Shown: positions 2,961 through 63,536 of the stretch, piece by piece
Layout: each line of letters begins with the position of its first letter
How positions within the stretch are numbered: position 1 is the first letter of the stretch
Assembly: GCA_964016885.1 (NCBI GenBank)
Contig: OZ024743.1
Location: 373,054,001 to 373,118,000, forward strand
DNA from: Eledone cirrhosa
Taxonomy: Eukaryota
Direction of reading: 5' to 3'
DNA length: 64,000 bases
Program-made: the position numbers and the translations under genes
Notes under the pieces: generated by a model
Databases searched by the model: none
Told to the model about the DNA's origin: nothing
The model's input: the letters and a program-made list of their open reading frames with translations, nothing else

Positions 2961-4425
2961 GGATTGTATCTGTAATTGAATGGCCAGCTTTGTCACATGG
3001 AATCTCCCCAAGAATTACATCAGTGGTACACATATCTGGAATGCTCAGCCACTTACTCTTTAATTTTATGAGAGGGTGTTCTATTAATCAAACAACTGAA
3101 ACACTCATTTTTAAAACTGATGAAGGTCAATTTATATATGTGTTTAGTATAGAACATGTATGAAACTGCAACTGTTTGTGGAGTTGTGGTGGAATACCCA
3201 GCAGAACCTATCCTCTCTCCAGGTCTGAACACAACCATTTTCTTCCATAGGTAGAGGAAGCAAGAAAGAGATATAGAGGAAGAATTTCCCCCATTACTGG
3301 ATACTGGACTAGGTACTTCTTTTTTATCAACCTTGAAAAGATGAAAGGCTAAGTCGACCTCAGTAGTTTTTGAACTCAGAGAGCCAGAAAAAATATCATA
3401 AAGCATTCTATTTGATGTTTTAATGACTCTGCCAATTCACTGCCTTTAGTATAGGACAAAAGATGGGAAAATGTTAGTATTTTAGAACCTTGGCATTAAC
3501 AGGAAGAGGATTGATCACTCTAGGAGGCTGATACCAAACTAAATTCTAGAATACTGTACACAATATAGTTCAACCCTTGCTAGCAAGGAAAGATGTTAAA
3601 CGGCGGGGAAGATGATGGTGGTCATGGTGATGATGAATATACCCAGATGGATGGAATGCAAAACTGGCCACTTAACACTAGAGAGGCCACAGTAGAAAGG
3701 TCAGTTCACCATCCATTTGTGGACTTTAACAAGCTGTGTTAGGACAAAACCACTTCCAACCATAAGAATAAGCTTTCTGAGAGAAGTTGTTAAGGTGCCT
3801 ATCAGTTCTCCACTAATGTTGATTAAAACCATTTCTCAGATATCACTAAAATGTAATTTTGTCCTCTGTCATATCAATAATGTCTATGACATGTTGATTT
3901 TTGAGACTTCTGATTTTAGACCATTCTTTCAGGTTTGGAATGTATTGTCTTCAACAAAATTTACAATCAGAACTAAGTCATGAGTATATAAAAGTTTTCA
4001 AGGACATTCAGTCCTGAACTACTGTTGCTATTACCTTAAGCAATACATTGAAAAAAATGTGGGCTATGAACAGAACCTTGGTAAACACCTACTAGCACTA
4101 AATATCACATGGAATTCACTGCCAACTCCCATGTTTCTGTTGTTGTTTTTTACTACATTAATACATGACTTCAATTAATACACAACTTCAGTAGCACTTA
4201 TGAGCCAACCATTTATACTTAACTTTCTCAGCATAGATCCCTGTTAAAAATCTCCTTGTCAATGAATGCAAACTAAAATTTAACTTATGGCTTCTATTAA
4301 ATCTACAATGGTTCTTTCAATTACTTTTATAACTTTATTATAATTTCTAAAGCTGAAGTGATATACCAGCCCTCTCCAGGTCAAGAGCCTATTGACTTGA
4401 TGCCTCTATATTTCTACAGTTCTTT

Positions 4426-43304: not shown

Positions 43305-44759
43305 GTGGGCCTCTTTCTCCTTTTCAACATAAATGCCTCCTTTCCCCACCTTAAAGGTGGTTTATATCGTGATGACTGTCTTCTTCTTTCCAACAACCTT
43401 AGCCTTTCAGAAATAGAAAAAAACAAAAAGCATATTAGAACTTTCCTTAAAGACTATTATAGTCTTCATATTACTTTTGAAAAAACAAGTAAAGTAGTAA
43501 ATTTCCTAGATATAACTTTAGACTTAGCTACGGGTATCTACCAACCTTACCATAAACCCAACCAAAACTTACACTACATACACTCACAATCTAATCACCC
43601 TAAATCTATCCTTAAAAACCTTGCATATAATATATCACTTAGAATTTCTAACCTTTCTTCTAACCAAGATGTATTTGATAAAAATGCGACCTTCTATAAC
43701 GAAGCTCTAGATAGAAGTGGCCACAAAAATAGATTAGAATATATACCTTCTACTAAAAATACTATAAACATACAACCTAATATTACCAACAAACACCAAA
43801 TGAAAAGTACACACCTAAATGCCACCCACACTATACCCCAAAATACCAACTCTTCTAATATAAAGTATAGTAACTCTCAAAAAACTACTCATCATACAAC
43901 TCTAATAAATGTTAATAATAAAACTCCTAATAAACAAGATAAAACACCTAAATCTACAAATCTAACTAAAAATGTGCGTGGTGAGATCATTAACATTAAT
44001 CCTCCTAGTAAACATCACGATACAACCTATAAAAATAATAAACAACATAGAAACCGTAATAGACGGGTTACTTGGTATAATGCTCCATTTAATTTACAAA
44101 TTAAGGATAATATTGCTAAAAAAATTTTTTATATCCTAGAGAAAAACTTCCCGCCAAACCACAAATACCATCAAATCTTAAATAGGTCTACAGTTAAATT
44201 CTCATACTCAACAACAAATAACATAAAACAAAATATAAGTGCCTATAATGCATATAAATGTAAGAATACCATAAGTATACCACCAATACATCAAACTAAC
44301 CATATCTCTTCAAATACAGAATTAACGAAAGGTTGTAACTGTAGAAACAAGGCAAACTGCCCATTAAAAGGAAATTGTCTTGTTAACAACATAGTTTATA
44401 AATGTAATGTTAAAACTAAAGATTCTATTTGCTCATATATAGGAGCTACTTCTAACAAATTTAAGGCAAGGTTTAATACCCACAAACATAGTTTTAAAAA
44501 TGCCGCACTGGCTAATACAACATCTCTAGCAGAAAAAATCAATAGTTATAAAAATAAGAATATAGAATATGATTTGACCTGGAGTGTGCTCAAAAGAGCC
44601 ACCCCTTATCAAAATAATAGAAATGAATGTAGATTATGTTCCCAAGAACTATTTGAAATAATGAAATCTAAGGATATCCTATTAAATAAACGACAGGAAT
44701 TAATTATATCGTGTAATCATAAACTAAGAAAAACATTTAAATATTATAAACCTAATTAA
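43305..44759 (+). CDS. 5'-truncated PLE ORF (RT C-terminal half plus GIY-YIG endonuclease), Hydra-clade-like
   Basis: [29 protein letters not shown]...CPL.GNCL, IVYKC...YIGAT, CRLC..E, NKRQE...C.H. The start is a truncation, not a true start codon. Confidence 0.9.
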
Positions 44760-45357
44760 TAACATTATTTTAGAATTTAATATATAATTTAATTTAAATG
44801 TTAGTTAACCTATAAATTTAATTTAATTAAAATTTTACTACAGATGAGATTATAAAATATTGTGTAATCATTAATTGTGAAAAACTTTTAAATATCACTA
44901 ATATATACTTCGTAAATTAATTTATAGATTAATTTTAATTTATTTAACTTTTTATTAAAATTCCTTTACAGATAAAATATAACAATATATCGTGTATTCA
45001 ATGACAGAGAAATAATTTTTAGTATTATAGACCTAATTAATGTACATTTTAGAAATATATTTATAATTTGGTTTTAAATTTGGTCAACCTAAAAATTTAA
45101 TTTAATTGGCTTAAAATTAATATCCTAATACAGATGGATTGCAGAGTGTCATGTAATCATAGACTGAGATAGGTTTTGGATCTATACCTAGTTAATATAT
45201 TCTTTGCAATTTTTGAAAAAATATGTATATGTATGTATATATATGTATATGTATATATATATATGTGTATATATATATATGTATATGTGTATGTATTAAT
45301 TTTAATTTTCTGTTTACCTATAATTATATTCTACTATAGATAAAATACAATATCTGT

Positions 45358-49391
<4,034 letters not shown>

Positions 49392-52300
49392 AGTAAATAA
49401 TTTATTATTGAACAAAACACAAGCTGAACGGCTAAAACACACAATAACAGTTAATATGAAAAGAACAACATACACAAAAGTCAACGCACTCTACAGACAA
49501 AAACGCATCAACGGTAAGGAAATCCGAAATCTCATCACAGCAAACGAGAGAGATGACTTCATGAGCGTCATCCGACGCGAAACGAAATATGCTCAAAACG
49601 AATGCTGTAGGCATTTCAAGAAGAAATTAGAATGGATGAATAAGAAAAAACTACAAGAAAGGAAAATCGAATATTCTCAAAAATACCCAGATAACATCGA
49701 CAACATCCGTATGAGTGATGTAAAACTACCGGAAGAATTTACCAATGACCACACAGTAAATATCTATGGGAACACTTTAATCAGTGAACAAGAACAACAA
49801 ATCCTAAAGTTACCACCAAAATTTGCCATCTACAAAAAGATTAATCCTATGGAATGCAAAACGGAGCTGGAAAAGTGTTTCACAAAAATACGTTGGAATG
49901 CAAAGGTAAACAACAACAACAATAATAACGGTAGTAGTAATATAAACAATAACTCTGGGTATAGAAATAACAGCCATAACCATAACAATGGCAGGAAAGT
50001 GAGAAATAGTGATAATGGTAATAATACTAGCGATAGACAGAACAACAACAACCACAATAATAATAATAATAGAAACGTTAACCACAGACACAGCAACAGT
50101 GACCACAGTAGTAATAACGGTAACAATACGAACAACAACAACAACAATAACCACAGTGGTAATAATGGAAATAGTACATGTAGCAACATCAACAAAAACA
50201 AGAAACATAATAATAGTAACAACCACAATGGTAGAAATAGCAGTAACAACAACAACAATAACGGTGAAGTAAACAACAATACATCTAGCAATCATAACAA
50301 TAATAATATTAATGCTAAGGATAGAAACAACAACAACCACCATGATAACAATAATAGCAACACACACAACTATGACGATAGAAATAACGACAACCCCTTA
50401 GAGAAACTATTTTTCAACCCAGCTGACAAAACATATAAGATGGGTAATATCTATCCTACGAGGTTACCCTTTAATAAAAGAGTTTGCATACCACAACAAA
50501 TAGATGACGAGACGGAGGCACAGTTCACCATAGCTAGAAATAAGATTAGACAAGTAGTAGACAGGTACACTATGAGACAGAGCAGACCAGAGGCCCAACA
50601 ACTTGGGATAAAACCTGTAGAAGGCTTGGTTAGCCTCAAGCAGCGCACAAGGGATGGTGAGGTAGTGTGTCTACCCACAGATAAGTCTGGTAGGATGTCA
50701 ATAGATAGCATGCCGAACTACATCGAGGCAATGCAACCCCACATCACCAACACGAGCGAAGTTGCACAACTAACACACGATGGGAGAGAAAAAATCCTCA
50801 ACGCTCACATGATGATGTGGACTGACATCCTAAAGCCAAGCAGACGCACTGCCAACAACTTCCAGGCGTCTAACAATGGCATACCACCCTTGTATGGGCT
50901 CCGCAAAGACCACAAGACAGTCGACGACCCGACAATAGGACCACCAACAAGACCTGTATGCGGAGCTAATATAGCTAGCAACTACAGGATCTCCTACTTC
51001 CTCTCAATGGTTATACGCCCCATAATCAAGATGTCCCCAGATGTATGTGAAAGTACAGAGGACCTCCTCAGCAGAATCAGTGAGTGCAACAAAAACAGGA
51101 GCCTATCCAACTGCATAATAGGCAGCATGGATGTGGTGTCACTGTACCCATCCATTAACATTGATTTTGCTGTGAAAAGATGTGTGGAGATGATCATTGA
51201 GAGTGAGGTGGAGTTCTGCGACGTCGACACAGACGAACTGGGCCTCCTACTTAGACTTACCTACGACACTGACTACCTAGACAGCCATGACCTTAGATGT
51301 TTCTGCCCTAGTAGACCTATAAGAGGTAGACCCCCCACCATAACCTCAATGGCTAAAAAGACTCCCATAGGAAGGTGGATTGGGTGGACCAAAGCTATAC
51401 GGACCCCCCAAAACACTGATCAGGTAAGAAAAATGGTCGCACATGCAATAGGGGCTAGTATCAAAACTACCCTAAAGGGCCACATATTTAAGTTCAATGA
51501 GAAAATCTACACCCAAAATGAGGGAGCAGCCATCGGCGTCAGCATAGCTGGCGATGTTGCCAACCTTTTCATGGTATGGTGGGAAAGGAGACTTAAAGAT
51601 CTCCTTAATGAAAGCTCCATAGACCTCATCATGTACTCTCGTTATGTAGACGATATCAATATAGTTATAAGAACACCCCCACTAGAGAGCACTAACAAGT
51701 TTGATTTAGAACGTAGCACGATGGAAAGCATCCAGCAGATAGCTAATTCCATACACCAGAGTATAACTGTAACTATAGACTTCCCTTCCAAACACCCTAA
51801 CAATAGACTACCTGTATTAGACACAGAACTCTGGATCAACACTATAGACGAGAGAGCCCAAATTCTCCACTCACACTATGCTAAACCCATGGCCTCCAAA
51901 TACCTGATACTCAAAAACTCAGCAATGTCCAGTAGTGCTAAGTTTAATATTCTGATCGCAGATTTGGTACGAGTGATGAAGAATGTGTCCAGCATGTGCG
52001 ACCCAACAGAAATGGAAGGACACATCCAACACTTCATCAACCGCATGCAGTTCTCTGGCTACAACCAAAGAGACAGAGTCAGAGTATACGAAGGAGCCAT
52101 GGAAAAGTATAAGACCCTCATAGAACTGGACATGAAAGGAATTTGCCCACTATACAGGAGCAAATCATGGAATAGCTTAGATAGGGCTAGACATAAGATA
52201 GGGAAGGCCACATCATGGTACGACAACCAGAGATATCAGAGTGTCATGTTTGTGGACGCCACCCCTGGAGGGAAATTAGCTAACCAGTGTAGAAAGGCCC

Positions 52301-52800
52301 TGAGAAAGACCCACTTAAAAATAAAGGTGGTAGAAAAGCCAGGAACCACCATAAAATCCCTGATCAGCAAAACCTACCCTTTTAAGAAAACCCACTGTAC
52401 CAATAGGAAATGTATCATATGTAAGGTGAACCCCCGGATAAACTGTAAAACTAGAAACGTAGTCTATAGCATAAGATGTACAGAGGGTACTTGCAGAAAC
52501 ACGACAACAACATACATAGGTGAGACAGCTCGTAGCATAGGTGAAAGGATAGACCAACACTGGGGGGAACTAAAAGGACGAAAAAACGGGTCAGTACTAT
52601 ACGAACATGCTAGACAACATCATGACGGTAACATAGATAACATAGAAATTAGAATAATATCTAAACATAGGAATGACCCAGCAGATAGGCAAATCAGAGA
52701 GGCCAGTGAAATAGAAATTAGAAGACCAAAGCTAAACAGAAAGAATGAGTGGAACAACAACAACACCCAAACAAACAACACTGACCTAAGAGAAGTATAA
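49392..52800 (+). CDS. 5'-truncated first copy of the PLE ORF
   Basis: Translation identical to 53529-56937; the upstream part of the 1549-aa track ORF is microsatellite. Confidence 0.88.
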
Positions 52801-53304
52801 ATAAATAAGTAAATTAAATTAAATAAAATAAGATAAATAAATACATACACAAGCACATAAACACACACTAGTCACCCAGCAGACACAACACTATACACAC
52901 TAGTCACACATCACACATAACACTATACACACACGCAAACGCATGCGCAAAGAAGACAAAATAAAATAAGATAAACAAACAAGCAAATAAATAAATAAAT
53001 ATATAGACAGACTGAACAAAAAAAAAAAAAAAAATGGCGTAGACATACAACACAACAGGAGGAACAATGAATATAACACCACTGACGATGTTGCAGATGT
53101 GCAACGAAAGATTTATGTAAACTATATATATATGTGTTTGTCTATATTGTATCTGTATTATTTTTGACCGCCGGTCAGTCAATGGCAACATTGAGGACCG
53201 AATAAGTTAGATCGCAGATATATATATATAAAAGACAGCGAGAAGCGAAAACCAACCAAACAGTGAGTGTGTTCTGTTATTAATTCTGGCAATATTACGC
53301 AAAT

Positions 53305-56300
53305 ATGACCCTCCCCAAATATAACAATATCTGTTTCGACACACGATTTCATATAAAAAACCTCGCAAAACTAATTCATCGCCGCTATGGCATTAGCTTG
53401 TGCCAAGCTGAAAGGTTATTGAAAGACACTGTTTTCTGTTATATAAAAACTACAATAACAACAGAACAAATCCGCTTCTTAAAACACTGTGTTTCCTCCA
53501 AAACATACACAACAAACATATCAAAACAAGTAAATAATTTATTATTGAACAAAACACAAGCTGAACGGCTAAAACACACAATAACAGTTAATATGAAAAG
53601 AACAACATACACAAAAGTCAACGCACTCTACAGACAAAAACGCATCAACGGTAAGGAAATCCGAAATCTCATCACAGCAAACGAGAGAGATGACTTCATG
53701 AGCGTCATCCGACGCGAAACGAAATATGCTCAAAACGAATGCTGTAGGCATTTCAAGAAGAAATTAGAATGGATGAATAAGAAAAAACTACAAGAAAGGA
53801 AAATCGAATATTCTCAAAAATACCCAGATAACATCGACAACATCCGTATGAGTGATGTAAAACTACCGGAAGAATTTACCAATGACCACACAGTAAATAT
53901 CTATGGGAACACTTTAATCAGTGAACAAGAACAACAAATCCTAAAGTTACCACCAAAATTTGCCATCTACAAAAAGATTAATCCTATGGAATGCAAAACG
54001 GAGCTGGAAAAGTGTTTCACAAAAATACGTTGGAATGCAAAGGTAAACAACAACAACAATAATAACGGTAGTAGTAATATAAACAATAACTCTGGGTATA
54101 GAAATAACAGCCATAACCATAACAATGGCAGGAAAGTGAGAAATAGTGATAATGGTAATAATACTAGCGATAGACAGAACAACAACAACCACAATAATAA
54201 TAATAATAGAAACGTTAACCACAGACACAGCAACAGTGACCACAGTAGTAATAACGGTAACAATACGAACAACAACAACAACAATAACCACAGTGGTAAT
54301 AATGGAAATAGTACATGTAGCAACATCAACAAAAACAAGAAACATAATAATAGTAACAACCACAATGGTAGAAATAGCAGTAACAACAACAACAATAACG
54401 GTGAAGTAAACAACAATACATCTAGCAATCATAACAATAATAATATTAATGCTAAGGATAGAAACAACAACAACCACCATGATAACAATAATAGCAACAC
54501 ACACAACTATGACGATAGAAATAACGACAACCCCTTAGAGAAACTATTTTTCAACCCAGCTGACAAAACATATAAGATGGGTAATATCTATCCTACGAGG
54601 TTACCCTTTAATAAAAGAGTTTGCATACCACAACAAATAGATGACGAGACGGAGGCACAGTTCACCATAGCTAGAAATAAGATTAGACAAGTAGTAGACA
54701 GGTACACTATGAGACAGAGCAGACCAGAGGCCCAACAACTTGGGATAAAACCTGTAGAAGGCTTGGTTAGCCTCAAGCAGCGCACAAGGGATGGTGAGGT
54801 AGTGTGTCTACCCACAGATAAGTCTGGTAGGATGTCAATAGATAGCATGCCGAACTACATCGAGGCAATGCAACCCCACATCACCAACACGAGCGAAGTT
54901 GCACAACTAACACACGATGGGAGAGAAAAAATCCTCAACGCTCACATGATGATGTGGACTGACATCCTAAAGCCAAGCAGACGCACTGCCAACAACTTCC
55001 AGGCGTCTAACAATGGCATACCACCCTTGTATGGGCTCCGCAAAGACCACAAGACAGTCGACGACCCGACAATAGGACCACCAACAAGACCTGTATGCGG
55101 AGCTAATATAGCTAGCAACTACAGGATCTCCTACTTCCTCTCAATGGTTATACGCCCCATAATCAAGATGTCCCCAGATGTATGTGAAAGTACAGAGGAC
55201 CTCCTCAGCAGAATCAGTGAGTGCAACAAAAACAGGAGCCTATCCAACTGCATAATAGGCAGCATGGATGTGGTGTCACTGTACCCATCCATTAACATTG
55301 ATTTTGCTGTGAAAAGATGTGTGGAGATGATCATTGAGAGTGAGGTGGAGTTCTGCGACGTCGACACAGACGAACTGGGCCTCCTACTTAGACTTACCTA
55401 CGACACTGACTACCTAGACAGCCATGACCTTAGATGTTTCTGCCCTAGTAGACCTATAAGAGGTAGACCCCCCACCATAACCTCAATGGCTAAAAAGACT
55501 CCCATAGGAAGGTGGATTGGGTGGACCAAAGCTATACGGACCCCCCAAAACACTGATCAGGTAAGAAAAATGGTCGCACATGCAATAGGGGCTAGTATCA
55601 AAACTACCCTAAAGGGCCACATATTTAAGTTCAATGAGAAAATCTACACCCAAAATGAGGGAGCAGCCATCGGCGTCAGCATAGCTGGCGATGTTGCCAA
55701 CCTTTTCATGGTATGGTGGGAAAGGAGACTTAAAGATCTCCTTAATGAAAGCTCCATAGACCTCATCATGTACTCTCGTTATGTAGACGATATCAATATA
55801 GTTATAAGAACACCCCCACTAGAGAGCACTAACAAGTTTGATTTAGAACGTAGCACGATGGAAAGCATCCAGCAGATAGCTAATTCCATACACCAGAGTA
55901 TAACTGTAACTATAGACTTCCCTTCCAAACACCCTAACAATAGACTACCTGTATTAGACACAGAACTCTGGATCAACACTATAGACGAGAGAGCCCAAAT
56001 TCTCCACTCACACTATGCTAAACCCATGGCCTCCAAATACCTGATACTCAAAAACTCAGCAATGTCCAGTAGTGCTAAGTTTAATATTCTGATCGCAGAT
56101 TTGGTACGAGTGATGAAGAATGTGTCCAGCATGTGCGACCCAACAGAAATGGAAGGACACATCCAACACTTCATCAACCGCATGCAGTTCTCTGGCTACA
56201 ACCAAAGAGACAGAGTCAGAGTATACGAAGGAGCCATGGAAAAGTATAAGACCCTCATAGAACTGGACATGAAAGGAATTTGCCCACTATACAGGAGCAA

Positions 56301-56937
56301 ATCATGGAATAGCTTAGATAGGGCTAGACATAAGATAGGGAAGGCCACATCATGGTACGACAACCAGAGATATCAGAGTGTCATGTTTGTGGACGCCACC
56401 CCTGGAGGGAAATTAGCTAACCAGTGTAGAAAGGCCCTGAGAAAGACCCACTTAAAAATAAAGGTGGTAGAAAAGCCAGGAACCACCATAAAATCCCTGA
56501 TCAGCAAAACCTACCCTTTTAAGAAAACCCACTGTACCAATAGGAAATGTATCATATGTAAGGTGAACCCCCGGATAAACTGTAAAACTAGAAACGTAGT
56601 CTATAGCATAAGATGTACAGAGGGTACTTGCAGAAACACGACAACAACATACATAGGTGAGACAGCTCGTAGCATAGGTGAAAGGATAGACCAACACTGG
56701 GGGGAACTAAAAGGACGAAAAAACGGGTCAGTACTATACGAACATGCTAGACAACATCATGACGGTAACATAGATAACATAGAAATTAGAATAATATCTA
56801 AACATAGGAATGACCCAGCAGATAGGCAAATCAGAGAGGCCAGTGAAATAGAAATTAGAAGACCAAAGCTAAACAGAAAGAATGAGTGGAACAACAACAA
56901 CACCCAAACAAACAACACTGACCTAAGAGAAGTATAA
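53305..56937 (+). CDS. Intact PLE polyprotein, 1210 aa: N-terminal region, Asn-rich tract, RT, Cys linker, GIY-YIG endonuclease
   Basis: [66 protein letters not shown]...[21 protein letters not shown]. Confidence 0.95.
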   Translation: MTLPKYNNICFDTRFHIKNLAKLIHRRYGISLCQAERLLKDTVFCYIKTTITTEQIRFLKHCVSSKTYTTNISKQVNNLLLNKTQAERLKHTITVNMKRTTYTKVNALYRQKRINGKEIRNLITANERDDFMSVIRRETKYAQNECCRHFKKKLEWMNKKKLQERKIEYSQKYPDNIDNIRMSDVKLPEEFTNDHTVNIYGNTLISEQEQQILKLPPKFAIYKKINPMECKTELEKCFTKIRWNAKVNNNNNNNGSSNINNNSGYRNNSHNHNNGRKVRNSDNGNNTSDRQNNNNHNNNNNRNVNHRHSNSDHSSNNGNNTNNNNNNNHSGNNGNSTCSNINKNKKHNNSNNHNGRNSSNNNNNNGEVNNNTSSNHNNNNINAKDRNNNNHHDNNNSNTHNYDDRNNDNPLEKLFFNPADKTYKMGNIYPTRLPFNKRVCIPQQIDDETEAQFTIARNKIRQVVDRYTMRQSRPEAQQLGIKPVEGLVSLKQRTRDGEVVCLPTDKSGRMSIDSMPNYIEAMQPHITNTSEVAQLTHDGREKILNAHMMMWTDILKPSRRTANNFQASNNGIPPLYGLRKDHKTVDDPTIGPPTRPVCGANIASNYRISYFLSMVIRPIIKMSPDVCESTEDLLSRISECNKNRSLSNCIIGSMDVVSLYPSINIDFAVKRCVEMIIESEVEFCDVDTDELGLLLRLTYDTDYLDSHDLRCFCPSRPIRGRPPTITSMAKKTPIGRWIGWTKAIRTPQNTDQVRKMVAHAIGASIKTTLKGHIFKFNEKIYTQNEGAAIGVSIAGDVANLFMVWWERRLKDLLNESSIDLIMYSRYVDDINIVIRTPPLESTNKFDLERSTMESIQQIANSIHQSITVTIDFPSKHPNNRLPVLDTELWINTIDERAQILHSHYAKPMASKYLILKNSAMSSSAKFNILIADLVRVMKNVSSMCDPTEMEGHIQHFINRMQFSGYNQRDRVRVYEGAMEKYKTLIELDMKGICPLYRSKSWNSLDRARHKIGKATSWYDNQRYQSVMFVDATPGGKLANQCRKALRKTHLKIKVVEKPGTTIKSLISKTYPFKKTHCTNRKCIICKVNPRINCKTRNVVYSIRCTEGTCRNTTTTYIGETARSIGERIDQHWGELKGRKNGSVLYEHARQHHDGNIDNIEIRIISKHRNDPADRQIREASEIEIRRPKLNRKNEWNNNNTQTNNTDLREV

Positions 56938-57539
56938 ATAAATAAGTAAATTAAATAAAATAAAATAAGATAAATAAATACATACACAAGCACATAAACA
57001 CACACTAGTCACCCAGCAGACACAACACTATACACACTAGTCACACATCACACATAACACTATACACACACGCAAACGCATGCGCAAAGAAGACAAAATA
57101 AAATAAGATAAACAAACAAGCAAATAAATAAATAAATATATAGACAGACTGAACAAAAACAAAAAAAAAAAAAATGGCGTAGACATACAACACAACAGGA
57201 GGAACAATGAATATAACACCACTGACGATGTTGCAGATGTGCAACGAAAGATTTATGTAAACTATATATATATGTGTTTGTCTATATTGTATCTGTATTA
57301 TTTTTGACCGCCGGTCAGTCAATGGCAACATTGAGGACCGAATAAGTTAGATCGCAGATATATATATATAAAAGACAGCGAGAAGCGAAAACCAACCAAA
57401 CAGTGAGTGTGTTCTGTTATTAATTCTGGCAATATTACGCAAATATGACCCTCCCCAAATATAACAACATATATATATATATATTCATATATATTCATAT
57501 ATATATATATATTCATATATATTCATATATATATATATA

Positions 57540-57589
<50 letters not shown>

Positions 57590-57625
57590 TATATATTCAT
57601 ATATATATATATATTCATATATATA

Positions 57626-57703
<78 letters not shown>

Positions 57704-57780
57704 TATTGAAATTATTGAATATATATATAAAGTATTGAATATATATATATATATTGAATATATATATATATATATATATA

Positions 57781-57846
<66 letters not shown>

Positions 57847-57870
57847 TATATATATACATATATATATATA

Positions 57871-58152
<282 letters not shown>

Positions 58153-58223
58153 TATATATATATATATATATTCATATATATATATATATATATATTCATA
58201 TATATATATATATATATATATTC

Positions 58224-58380
<157 letters not shown>

Positions 58381-58503
58381 TATATATATATATATATATA
58401 TATTCATATATATATATTAATATATATAACGAAGGAAATGTGGTAAGGAACCAGGTGGACCATAACGCACCAAAGTACTCAATACTTGAGGTAGTAGAGT
58501 GGG

Positions 58504-60002: not shown

Positions 60003-61651
60003 TACTTATACTCGCGCATATAAACCTGTCTGCATGCCCATGTATGAAACTGGGTAAGTAACAAAAGAGGGAAGGGGGGGGAGAAGAAAAAAGAAACAAA
60101 AAAATATAAAACCGAAATGTCAAAAACACGGATATAAAGACACTTACACATACGCATAATATACACACGCGCACACACACAAACACCAGTACACACACGC
60201 ATACATACACGTACATATACATATAAATATATATATATATACACATACATGCACGCACGCGCGCGCACATACGTAGTCACTCATGTACATATATAAAAAA
60301 ATTATACACACATTAAGGCGTTCAACCATATTGAAATGTGGATAAATAAATACAAATATAAAATTGTAAGATAGGCTGCGCAAAAATAAAATAAAAATAA
60401 AAATGAAAAATATATCTGAATTGAAAAACACAAAAGACAAGTATAATCAGTTAGTAGAGGAAAAAGGGAAGTAAAAAATAGAAAATAGGAAGTTGATCGG
60501 AGAATAAGGGGGGGGGGGGGGGGGTGAAGTAAAAATAAATAAAAAAATAAATAAAAGTGAAAATAAATGAAATTATCGACAAGGATAAGAATGAAAGTAA
60601 GTCAGAAAGGGTAATTAAAAAGAGAATAATCAGAGTTTATGGAGGATAAGTGTCTGAAAGTGTGTTAAGTTTATATGAGCTGGAAAGCAGGTGTGATTTC
60701 ATGTGTGGACAACTGGTAAACATTTCCGTCTTTGTGTTCAGGCAGGTCTTTGGTGATTTGAGATTTTGCAATATCCAAAATTTTTCATTTATGCAGAGCG
60801 TGCATTTTCTTGTTCCTCTAGCATATTTTTTAGATTGGTTCAAAATTGACCAATCTAGTTTATATTGGATGCCTTGGTCTTTCAAATCCCAGATTCTGCT
60901 AGCCAGAGCTGTTGTAAATCTTTTTTCTGGATGTCGAAAGGATGCGACATGTGAGTAATAACGCGTTTTGAATTTGTCTTGCGTCATACCCACATATCGT
61001 TCACTGGTGGCTGGTTGGTTGTTGCTGATGGTTGTCACTTTAGCCGCATATACAATGGCTTTGATGTTGTATTTACCTTGTAATGGGTATTCACTTTTGA
61101 CTCTACAGGAGCAAGTTTGATTTTCTCTAGGTGATGTTTTGTTGAGGATATAGGACTTAATAGGGGGACCGCAGGAATAGCTAATTTTAACACAGTTTCT
61201 GTTAAAGATCTTATAGTATCTATGTGTTCTAGGGAAATGTTTATCTAGGAGTTCTAGGAATTTTTTGCCTACATAAGTTTTAACTGCTAGAGAGTAGGGG
61301 GTTGTGAACCAGATTATTTTTCTTTTCCTATTTTTATGTTTAATAGAGTTAGTGTAGTTAGGTATGTATTTAATCGGTTCGCTAAAGCCGCTATTTTGGA
61401 GGGCTTTATTATAGTAGGGGGATGCCTTATTGAAAATAGCTTCTGATGAAGAGAGGGTGGAGATCCTACGGCTAATATTAGGGATAGGTTTTTAAAAACT
61501 ATAGGTGGATGGCAAGATCCTTTATTTATATATTTTAAGTTTTCATTAGGTTTATGGTATGGTTTATAAGAAGCAGTAGGCAAATCTAGGTTTATATCTA
61601 GGAAATCTACATTGGAAAGGTTAGTATCAATAGTAATTTTAAGATTAAAAC
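59293..61651 (-). mobile_element. 5'-truncated, frameshifted Hydra-like PLE with a long 3' region
   Basis: VDFLDINLDLPTASYKPYHKPN, WFTTPYS, RYVGMTQDKFKTRYYSH, CTLCINEK, LNTKTE...CPH; stop at 60637. Confidence 0.88.
59395..59472 (-). ncRNA. Type I hammerhead ribozyme in the PLE 3' region
   Basis: 10-bp stem I AUUGCCUCGU/AUGAGGUAAU; CUGACGA; stem II CGAAUGA/UCAUUCG; GAAA; stem III ACC-UCU-GGU; GUA triplet; same strand as the PLE ORF. Confidence 0.85.
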
Positions 61652-61754
61652 TATATATTATATATATATATATATATATTCATATATATTCATATATATA
61701 TATATATATTCATATATATTCATATATATATATATATTCATATATATATATATA

Positions 61755-63502
61755 TCATCATCATCATCATCATCATCAACGTTTAACGTCCGTGTTCCAC
61801 GCTTGCATGGGTTTGGACGGGGGTAGTCCCACTTGAGGCAAGAGTGATTGTCTTGCTCGCATAGGACTGTCTGGCAGGTTTTCTACAGTTGGATGCCCTT
61901 CCTAACACCAACCACATTTACAGTGTGGGTCTGGGAGGTTTTTACCGTGTTGCCTACACGGCCACATTACAGCGTGGACTGTGTTTTTTTGTCGTGACAC
62001 CTACACGATCTCATTTGTTTCGGCCTCGATGGCGCGGCACCAACATAACTTTACATAGAACGGGGTGGTGTGGATGGGGTGGGGGCGGGGTGGTGGGACG
62101 GGGTGTATTTTGTTAGAGATGCCTACTGATTGTAGTAGGTTTTACTATGTATTTAGGTAAGGCGGGTCTTCTCTGTTACTGAGTACCGCCAAAGGTCTCG
62201 GTCCAGTGACATTGTCTTGGAGAGGTGTAAGTGTGTGATGTCGGAGTTTATCAGCTCGTCCCAGGTTTTCCTAGGTCTGCCTATTCCGTGACTACCGTCT
62301 ATCTTTATTGCCCTGCACTTTGTTATACAGCTATCGACTTTCATGCGCATCACGTGTCCATACCAACGTAGCCTTCTCTCGAGTAAACAACATCTGATCC
62401 CTCTTATCTCTAATTTTTTCCTTAGTTCGTTTATGCTTTGCTGTTCACGTATATTACTGTTACACATCCAGCGGAGCATGCAAGCTTCGTTCCTCTCTAG
62501 TCTGCGTATATCCTCTGCACACAATGCCCAGGTCTCACTGCCGTGCAGCATTGCTGTTCGTATGCAGGCATCGTACAACCTGCCTTTCATTTTTAGTGAG
62601 AACCCTTTAGCAGCTAATAGTGGTATAAGCTCTCTGAACTTTTTCCAACCAGTTCTGACTCTAGCTACAGTACTTTCAGAGCACCCTCCCCCACTGCTGA
62701 TTTTATCGCCCAGGTAACGGAAGCTGTCCACTATTTCTATAGAACCCTCTGCGCAATTGAAAGAGCTAGTAGTTTGTGGGCACTTGCTGCTACTTATTGC
62801 ACCAGAGCACCGGCCACATGTAAAATCTATGTTCTTAGTTAGCTTACCTGTGATCCCACTACATCTTTTATGCACCCATACTTTGCATTTAGGACATAAA
62901 ATGGAGTTTCTACCTACGCCTTTCCTACACACCGAGCACGACCATTTCCCAGAAGGGACCGCCGCCTTGTTTTCTTTCCTACAAACTAGTACTTTGGTCT
63001 TAGCCAGGTTAATTTTAAGTCCTTTTGACTCTAGGCCGTGCTTCCATGTTTGGAATTTCTTCTCTAGCTCGGCCATTGATTCCGCTATGAGTGTCAGGTC
63101 GTCTGCGTATAGGAGTTCCCATGGGCAGCCTGTCTTGAACTCCTCTGTTATAGCCTGAAGGGCAATAATAAATAGTAGTGGGCTGAGAACAGAGCCCTGA
63201 TGGACGCCAACTTTTACGCTAAACTCTTCACTATATTCGTTGTTAATTCTAACCTTGCTGACTGTTTCTTTATACATGGCTTGTATAGCCCTCACAAGCC
63301 ATTCGTCAACGCCTAGTTTTCTAAGAGCCCACCAGATAATGGAGCGGGGGACTCTGTCGAAGGCTTTCTCCAAGTCGACAAAAGCTAAGTAGAGGGGTTT
63401 ACCTTTAGATAGGTACTTCTCCTGTAGTTGTCGTACTATGAAAAGAGCGTCTGTGGTACTTTTGCCTGACACAAACCCGAACTGCATTTCATCTAGGTCA
63501 AA
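61755..63502 (-). mobile_element. 5'-truncated RTE LINE (sister family of 12101-17166); open frame 62153-63487
   Basis: QFGF...YADD...PHD-like finger...RLRWYGHV; 3' UTR and (CAT)n tail. Confidence 0.92.
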
Positions 63503-63536
63503 TTCATATATATATATTCATATATATATATAAATA

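Follow-up and report, generated by a model that had tools for sequence, protein, structure and literature searches.

Near-double insertion of an intact Penelope-like element with a C-terminal GIY-YIG nuclease and a long fingers insert in Eledone cirrhosa

Introduction

A 64,000-nucleotide stretch of the Eledone cirrhosa genome (GenBank assembly GCA_964016885.1, contig OZ024743.1, positions 373,054,001 to 373,118,000 of the forward strand; hereafter the window) contains a Penelope-like element (PLE) which is present almost twice, in head-to-tail orientation, within a TA/TTCA satellite. This locus raises the questions of how a seamless insertion of nearly two units was copied, and to which PLE lineage its reverse transcriptase (RT) belongs. 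Partial tandems, inverted arms and a tail at one end have already been published for PLEs (PMC8557442). Overall, our analysis makes it quite probable that the window holds a very recent insertion of an intact PLE, with a C-terminal nuclease and a fingers insert in its RT, copied from an RNA longer than one unit.

Results

Structure of the tandem insertion

The element covers positions 49392-57467 (8,076 nt) with a period of 4137-4140, which amounts to 1.95 units (8,076/4,140). Aligning the units with each other (49392-53020 to 53529-57157 and 53021-53330 to 57161-57470; 3,939 nt aligned), we recovered both differences that an earlier note, made from the sequence alone, had reported for this near-double unit. 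These are the sole substitution between the units, in the 3' untranslated region (UTR; T at 52820, A at 56957), and a 3-nt gap in the A-tract, which consists of 17 A upstream (53018-53034) and of 20 nt including one C downstream. All 3,114 non-repetitive bases compared between the units were identical, and the repetition of the unit is far above chance. The downstream unit carries a stop-free open reading frame (ORF) of 1,210 aa, the start of which is backed by a relative (P0020) whose N-terminus carries a similar FDTR stretch. The upstream unit begins at ORF nucleotide 225 and thus lacks the first 75 codons, and the last 23 nt of the insertion match the ORF start, forming the beginning of a third ORF copy. 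The description of a 3' end located 23 nt inside the ORF, with a full ORF in the downstream unit only, therefore stands. The dinucleotide CA is present at both insertion/flank junctions, and the satellite sequence on both sides makes any target-site duplication unreadable.

A putative hammerhead core lies ∼220 nt upstream of the start codon. This core and its stem II are almost invariant across copies of the family, stems I and III being imperfect, and an Rfam scan of the UTR returned three chance matches only and no hammerhead. Minimal PLE hammerheads are known (PMC4209133); the family copies are too alike to provide covariation for this structure or for hairpins near the ends.

An intact ORF with a telomerase-like RT and a C-terminal nuclease

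The RT motifs of the ORF are found at residues 504 (DKS), 653 (motif A), 786 (motif B) and 826 (YVDD). Using Pfam, no family was detected in the full-length protein, for which reason the lineage is easy to miss; the trimmed protein matched RVT_1 at E=1.7e-4, below the Pfam cut-off, and the Pfam GIY-YIG model gave no score on the window protein. The nuclease motifs of the window align, however, to the nuclease region of a Hydra-type ORF, and the linker/nuclease region was compared by eye with the text of Fig. S2 of PMC8557442. While a PDB sequence search gave weak RT matches only, a 783-aa structure model (predicted local distance difference test, pLDDT, 92) retrieved telomerase RTs at ranks 1-14 of a fold search (best Z 14.9, root-mean-square deviation 3.9, 368 aligned). 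Taken together, the telomerase-like RT and GIY-YIG nuclease in one ORF and the partial tandem/inverted pseudo-LTR insertions identify the element as Penelope-like (EN+). With near-identical units and an unbroken ORF, the initial view of a young, intact PLE inserted as a partial tandem is supported.

A homologue search revealed 106 strong relatives, nearly all of them environmental proteins and the closest from Octopus vulgaris (68%), below which the scores drop to three canonical elements (E 1e-6 to 1e-4). At E<=1e-30, a profile search returned 3,049 clusters, a count which may take in canonical elements. Among relatives with a measurable RT, 120 carry the nuclease motif C-terminally, and DKS is the commonest form of this RT motif among relatives (86 counts). 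One relative (P0235) has, in addition, a nuclease-like motif upstream of the RT and is possibly a fused tandem. The Asn-rich stretch preceding the RT core sets the window protein apart, with an RW-to-LPFNKR distance of 192 aa vs 31-79 in 31/36 measurable relatives; Asn-rich inserts are also carried by rotifer Penelope elements (PMC3846280).

A long and conserved fingers insert in the RT

The spacer between RT motifs A and B measures 131 aa in the window, 126-141 in 101/106 close relatives and 120-162 in 70/145 further relatives, the remainder of which were unmeasurable by pattern; a long spacer (120-162) is thus found in 171 relatives. By comparison, it measures 57-73 in 96/101 canonical-type proteins, 58-63 in 62/62 Nematis-type proteins and 81-89 in nine Naiad-type ORFs. 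The published alignment (PMC8557442) has short spacers in Penelope, Poseidon and Nematis, as well as in Neptune and Hydra, and long ones in telomerase (TERT), which we counted from the text of its Fig. S1 as ∼118 in human and ∼150 in Tetrahymena. In that source, the fingers insertion is placed in telomerase, Naiad/Chlamys and some Coprina, canonical elements with a C-terminal nuclease being without it, and the sporadic inserts of Coprina come with a caution against reading them as a shared derived trait.

The extra ∼70 aa form a single clean gap when profile-aligned to a Nematis-type ORF. Their conservation is on par with that of the nuclease (mean top residue 0.48), with eleven columns conserved to >=80% and E, L, C, P, R, G, P, R, W and P among the conserved residues. 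Modelled alone, the insert folds at pLDDT ∼90, mostly as predicted helix and loop. Against PDB folds, the insert alone reached a best Z of 5.4 among 48,161 chains, and a second search found none at E<=0.001, which is not evidence of a new fold. The window RT as a whole folds most like TERT and its insert occupies the position of the telomerase insertion-in-fingers domain with a similar spacer length, but the insert alone matches no solved fold, that of telomerase included, so the likeness is limited to position and length. This limit weighs against our overall reading. By analogy with its telomerase counterpart, we would predict contacts of the insert with either the template RNA or the primer duplex.

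Phylogenetic placement of the family

The RT tree proposed in the earlier note was built from 61 RT cores (61 of 89 extracted, 28 dropped; 383 columns) and contains no Athena, Coprina, Chlamys or TERT. Its reference clade labels were assigned by motif comparison with the supplement text of PMC8557442; none of the references is a curated sequence, nematode Nematis included. The Naiad-type references are metagenome ORFs chosen by the Naiad motif, of which 4/9 show the N-terminal nuclease motif. All family members group in a single clade (SH-aLRT 100). Its stem measures 1.44 under LG+G4 and 1.72 under the mixture model, compared to 1.1 and 1.70 for the Naiad-type stem, and the clade joins Nematis-type at supports of 86 and 73, respectively, as sister or nested. 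Median scores on the family profile were 143 bits for Nematis-type, 88 for Neptune-type, 88 for Poseidon-type/others, 36 for Naiad-type and 23 for Hydra-type.

The label Naiad-like given in the earlier note did not hold. What defines Naiad is a GIY-YIG placed N-terminally, together with DKA and a CxC domain (PMC8557442). The window element does have Naiad traits, namely TA targeting, a CxxC beside the nuclease, an A-B insert and, as in Naiad/Chlamys of that source, insertions in tandem and inverted form, tailed at one end; in addition, a sister grouping of the family RT and the Naiad RT is kept by the approximately unbiased (AU) test (p-AU 0.26). The (TA)n bias (118/135 ends) is not diagnostic, however, for Hydra has it too. 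Moreover, the nuclease is C-terminal in the window and in 120 relatives (one having an additional N-terminal one), the motif is DKS vs DKA in 9/9 Naiad-type references, the Naiad insert is ∼20 aa vs 70 in the window (spacers of 81-89 vs 131), and family and Naiad-type form separate clades, each at 99-100. The nine Naiad-type references score only 24-39 bits on the family profile vs 114-165 for Nematis-type, and two Naiad motif patterns run on the E. cirrhosa genome gave 0 matches. The order of domains already refutes this reading, and we see next to no chance that the element is a Naiad.

The affinity to Nematis is more difficult to settle. Like the window element, Nematis combines its RT with a short CX2-5CxxC linker and a GIY-YIG with CCHH (PMC8557442, short linker in Fig. 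S2), and it has the best profile score, a neighbouring position in the tree and, in Nematis_Pp, a VEKPG stretch before the linker. A profile comparison with a Nematis-type ORF (locus L082) reached probability 100 (E 4.7e-44, 831 columns), with the insert as a clean gap. These results, together with the joining at 86 under LG+G4, where the fork stays open, give somewhat below even chances to a scenario in which the family is a fast-evolving Nematis sub-branch that gained the insert and is perhaps in Repbase under generic Penelope names. Such a scenario has to account for the long stem, for DKS, KDHK and GxAIG vs DKG, KTHK and GxxMG in Nematis, for a spacer of 131 vs ∼61, for the Asn-rich stretch and for the Nematis-type rows forming their own group at 82 under the mixture model. 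In the supplement of PMC8557442, which is limited to selected references, none of four motifs of the family occurs. The literature searched describes no clade matching the family, the curated Repbase/Dfam families lying outside its scope.

In the tree, the family stands as a deep sister of Nematis or else as a highly derived member of that group. The candidate novelty likely lies in a large PLE lineage whose members combine a nuclease at the C-terminus with a long, conserved insert in the fingers. We give close to even chances to its being an undescribed deep PLE clade, found widely among environmental assemblies as well as in octopus and coral, in which a telomerase-length insert accompanies the C-terminal GIY-YIG and may support very long, repeated copying of a single template. 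Weighing against such a separate clade, the sister placement next to Nematis-type is weak (86 and 73) and the grouping with Naiad is not rejected (p-AU 0.26).

The Neptune-type ORFs of this genome branch off on their own in the tree (support 100) and reach 85-92 bits on the family profile; the linker of the window element is short, unlike the long Zn-finger linker of Neptune. KDHK and RW pointed towards Hydra as a closer relative, a reading which we rejected on its low profile scores (8-27 bits), an E of 2e-4 and differing features. Hydra also shares DKS/DKT, TA targeting and a C-terminal nuclease with the window (PMC8557442) but is without CCHH, has CxCX5C and a short spacer and is <3 kb. A first Hydra motif pattern run on the genome gave 0 matches. 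The genome also holds long open Neptune-type, Nematis-type and Hydra-type ORFs (L080-L089, L220).

The family in the genome and the ends of its insertions

The RT region has 1,914 candidate places in the genome, the 40 scored all being ∼100% identical. A 29-mer of the hammerhead core gave 8,708 exact matches, older subfamilies included, with copies 85-99% like the window (controls 0). A probe covering ORF +73 to +104, past all usual ends, detected 246 read-through junctions genome-wide (controls 0); among the 100 junctions listed, at least 8 arms have two or more such sites ∼4 kb apart, and a single arm reaches as many as three full units in the arrays fetched. Although long, the 1.95-mer is thus nothing exceptional in the family. 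The ORF is intact in 39/70 sampled full-length units, a sample biased to young copies, which agrees with the earlier assessment of a potentially active element and suggests that the family is probably active.

The 3' ends up to +100 (n=135) fall mainly at +26 (65), +69 (17) and +84 (28) of the ORF, and 118/135 continue into TA repeats, with an ambiguity in the last 1-3 nt because AT of the element matches the target. In 66/70 two-armed insertions, exactly one arm ends at ORF +22-26, whereas 35 would be expected if arms were independent (p 8e-16). The 5' ends (n=202) scatter across the entire unit, the A-tract having only a slight cluster of 7, and no fixed transcription-start pile-up was found among them. 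Poseidon PAc of Anolis similarly has 3' ends inside the ORF at several fixed sites, AT-rich targets and a hammerhead core in the pseudo-LTR (PMC11167929). It belongs to another clade, however, and differs from the family in the sites used (+23-26, +69 and +84 in the family), in the position of the hammerhead core and in the arms of two-armed insertions, which in our family almost always use different sites. Since the ends inside the anole ORF coincide with internal RT start sites (PMC11167929), the 3' end sites of the family are likewise probable RT start sites. Small hairpins are predicted just 3' of the +26 end (53332-53341, UUCG loop) and of the +84 end (∼53393-53409).

Template of the tandem

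Within an insertion, units differ by 0.6/kb when in tandem (73 pairs) and by 0.8/kb when inverted (92 pairs), compared to a median of 2.7/kb between insertions; A-tract lengths differ by a median of 0 within and of 4 between insertions. Private substitutions are common to the units of one insertion, inverted arms included. Since units share variants as well as A-tract length, template jumping in the form of a fresh jump at each junction, one of the two routes suggested by the earlier note, is disfavoured, and for the window tandem it is decidedly improbable. The same A-tract sharing rules out that the tract is a fresh poly(A) tail added at each junction. These results favour a seamless template longer than one unit, be it a circle or read-through RNA. 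To a read-through RNA from a longer tandem donor we assign nearly even chances. Were the template a circular monomer RNA, closed at the hammerhead site and reverse-transcribed by a rolling-circle route, this would account for the seamless junctions, for the lack of a fixed 5' end, for private variants and A-tract length being common to all units of an insertion and for arms extending to three full units. It is also in line with an insertion at C1:14.38 Mb (L099-L100), where codon 552 is a stop in each of the three full units of one arm and a defective template was apparently copied repeatedly, probably by protein from another copy. We nevertheless regard the circle as unlikely, as variants shared by a subset of units would need reversions on a single circle, the hammerhead is without canonical stems I and III, and anole Poseidon did without hammerhead cleavage in vitro (PMC11167929).

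An assembly artefact that doubled a single unit, or its later doubling by unequal crossover, would agree with the identity of the units over 3,114 non-repetitive bases, the comparison covering assembly sequence and not raw long reads. We consider it improbable, given that the units differ at two places, that partial tandems are common in the family and that private variants recur in inverted arms, a product beyond the reach of tandem duplication. The alleles common to both window units also occur elsewhere: at C22:24.79 Mb, on another chromosome, an insertion with a tandem and an inverted arm has all three rare window alleles in every covering segment. As the same alleles occur there together, they were inherited from a donor, and no later duplication is implied. 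Several observations speak against copying from one longer-than-unit template as a complete account. Variants are present in only some units of one insertion at C3:90.46, C3:170.96, C2:74.89 and C1:181.30; at the last (C1:181.30 Mb, L103-L104), a 117-nt UTR deletion is found in all three forward units and is absent from the inverted full unit, although forward and inverted units share five private substitutions. A few insertions have very different A-tracts (e.g. 8 vs 24 in L026) and, among the loci fetched, no donor with the window haplotype was long enough for the 1.95-mer. Because no single invariant template explains the subset-shared variants, later unequal exchange or template switching must contribute.

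These observations suggest a model in which the GIY-YIG nuclease would nick the TA satellite and the RT would start ∼23 nt inside the ORF by target-primed internal initiation, as in anole Poseidon (PMC11167929), and would then copy 8 kb of seamless longer-than-unit RNA, stopping at random. Such RNA would presumably be read through from longer tandem donors, with a circle as the second choice, and circle, jump or unequal exchange would still have to lengthen arrays at times.

Other features of the window

The features of the insertion are collected in Table 1.

Table 1. Features of the insertion and its flanks (window coordinates)
Feature	Position	Strand	Remark
Left flank, TA/TTCA satellite (target)	45982..49391	.	
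Upstream 5'-truncated unit (ORF nt 225 to end and UTR)	49392..53304	+	pseudo-LTR of the full unit
Hammerhead-like core, copy 1 (CUGACGA, 6-bp stem II, GAAA)	53082..53110	+	putative; stems I and III non-canonical
Intact ORF, 1,210 aa	53305..56937	+	N-terminal domain, Asn-rich stretch, RT, thumb, Zn-finger-like linker, C-terminal GIY-YIG
Asn-rich low-complexity stretch	54037..54532	+	48% Asn
RT core	54814..55791	+	DKS (54814), KDHK, motif A (55261), motif B GAAIG (55660), YVDD (55780)
Conserved insert of ∼70 aa between RT motifs A and B	55345..55551	+	position of the telomerase insertion-in-fingers domain
CX4CxxC linker (aa 1077) and C-terminal GIY-YIG with CCHH (aa 1093-1194)	56533..56886	+	by motifs
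UTR of the full unit	56938..57444	+	includes A-tract 57155-57174
Hammerhead-like core, copy 2	57222..57250	+	putative
3' end at ORF +23	57445..57467	+	short end class of the family; would be the reverse-transcription start
Right flank, TA/TTCA satellite (target)	57468..58420	.	

A small older two-armed copy of the family is located at 24700-25350 (88-92% identical, one arm ending at +85). Hydra-type Penelope sequences comprise an inverted pair of fragments at 43272-45980, 47% like an ORF in L220, and a piece at 61318-61652, up to 100% like that ORF. Two ORFs similar to long interspersed nuclear elements (12409-15033 and 62153-63517, both on the minus strand) encode RVT_1 followed by a PHD finger. 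Runs X1, X5 and X7, which carry the codes of three other organisms, contain contigs that match window positions 50450-54000 over 150-820 nt with 0-4 differences, at far lower depth than in X2; close species, horizontal transfer or cross-contamination may be their source.

Discussion

Penelope-like RTs are the sister group of telomerase. If the placement outlined here is true, the combination of a C-terminal nuclease and a fingers insert in one lineage would add a clade and would bear on whether the insert is ancestral. Moreover, hundreds of near-identical copies with private variants allow the formation of tandems and inverted arms to be tested on genome data as well as in vitro. If our reading is correct, the family, being young and intact, would constitute a natural system for how Penelope tandems and two-armed insertions form.

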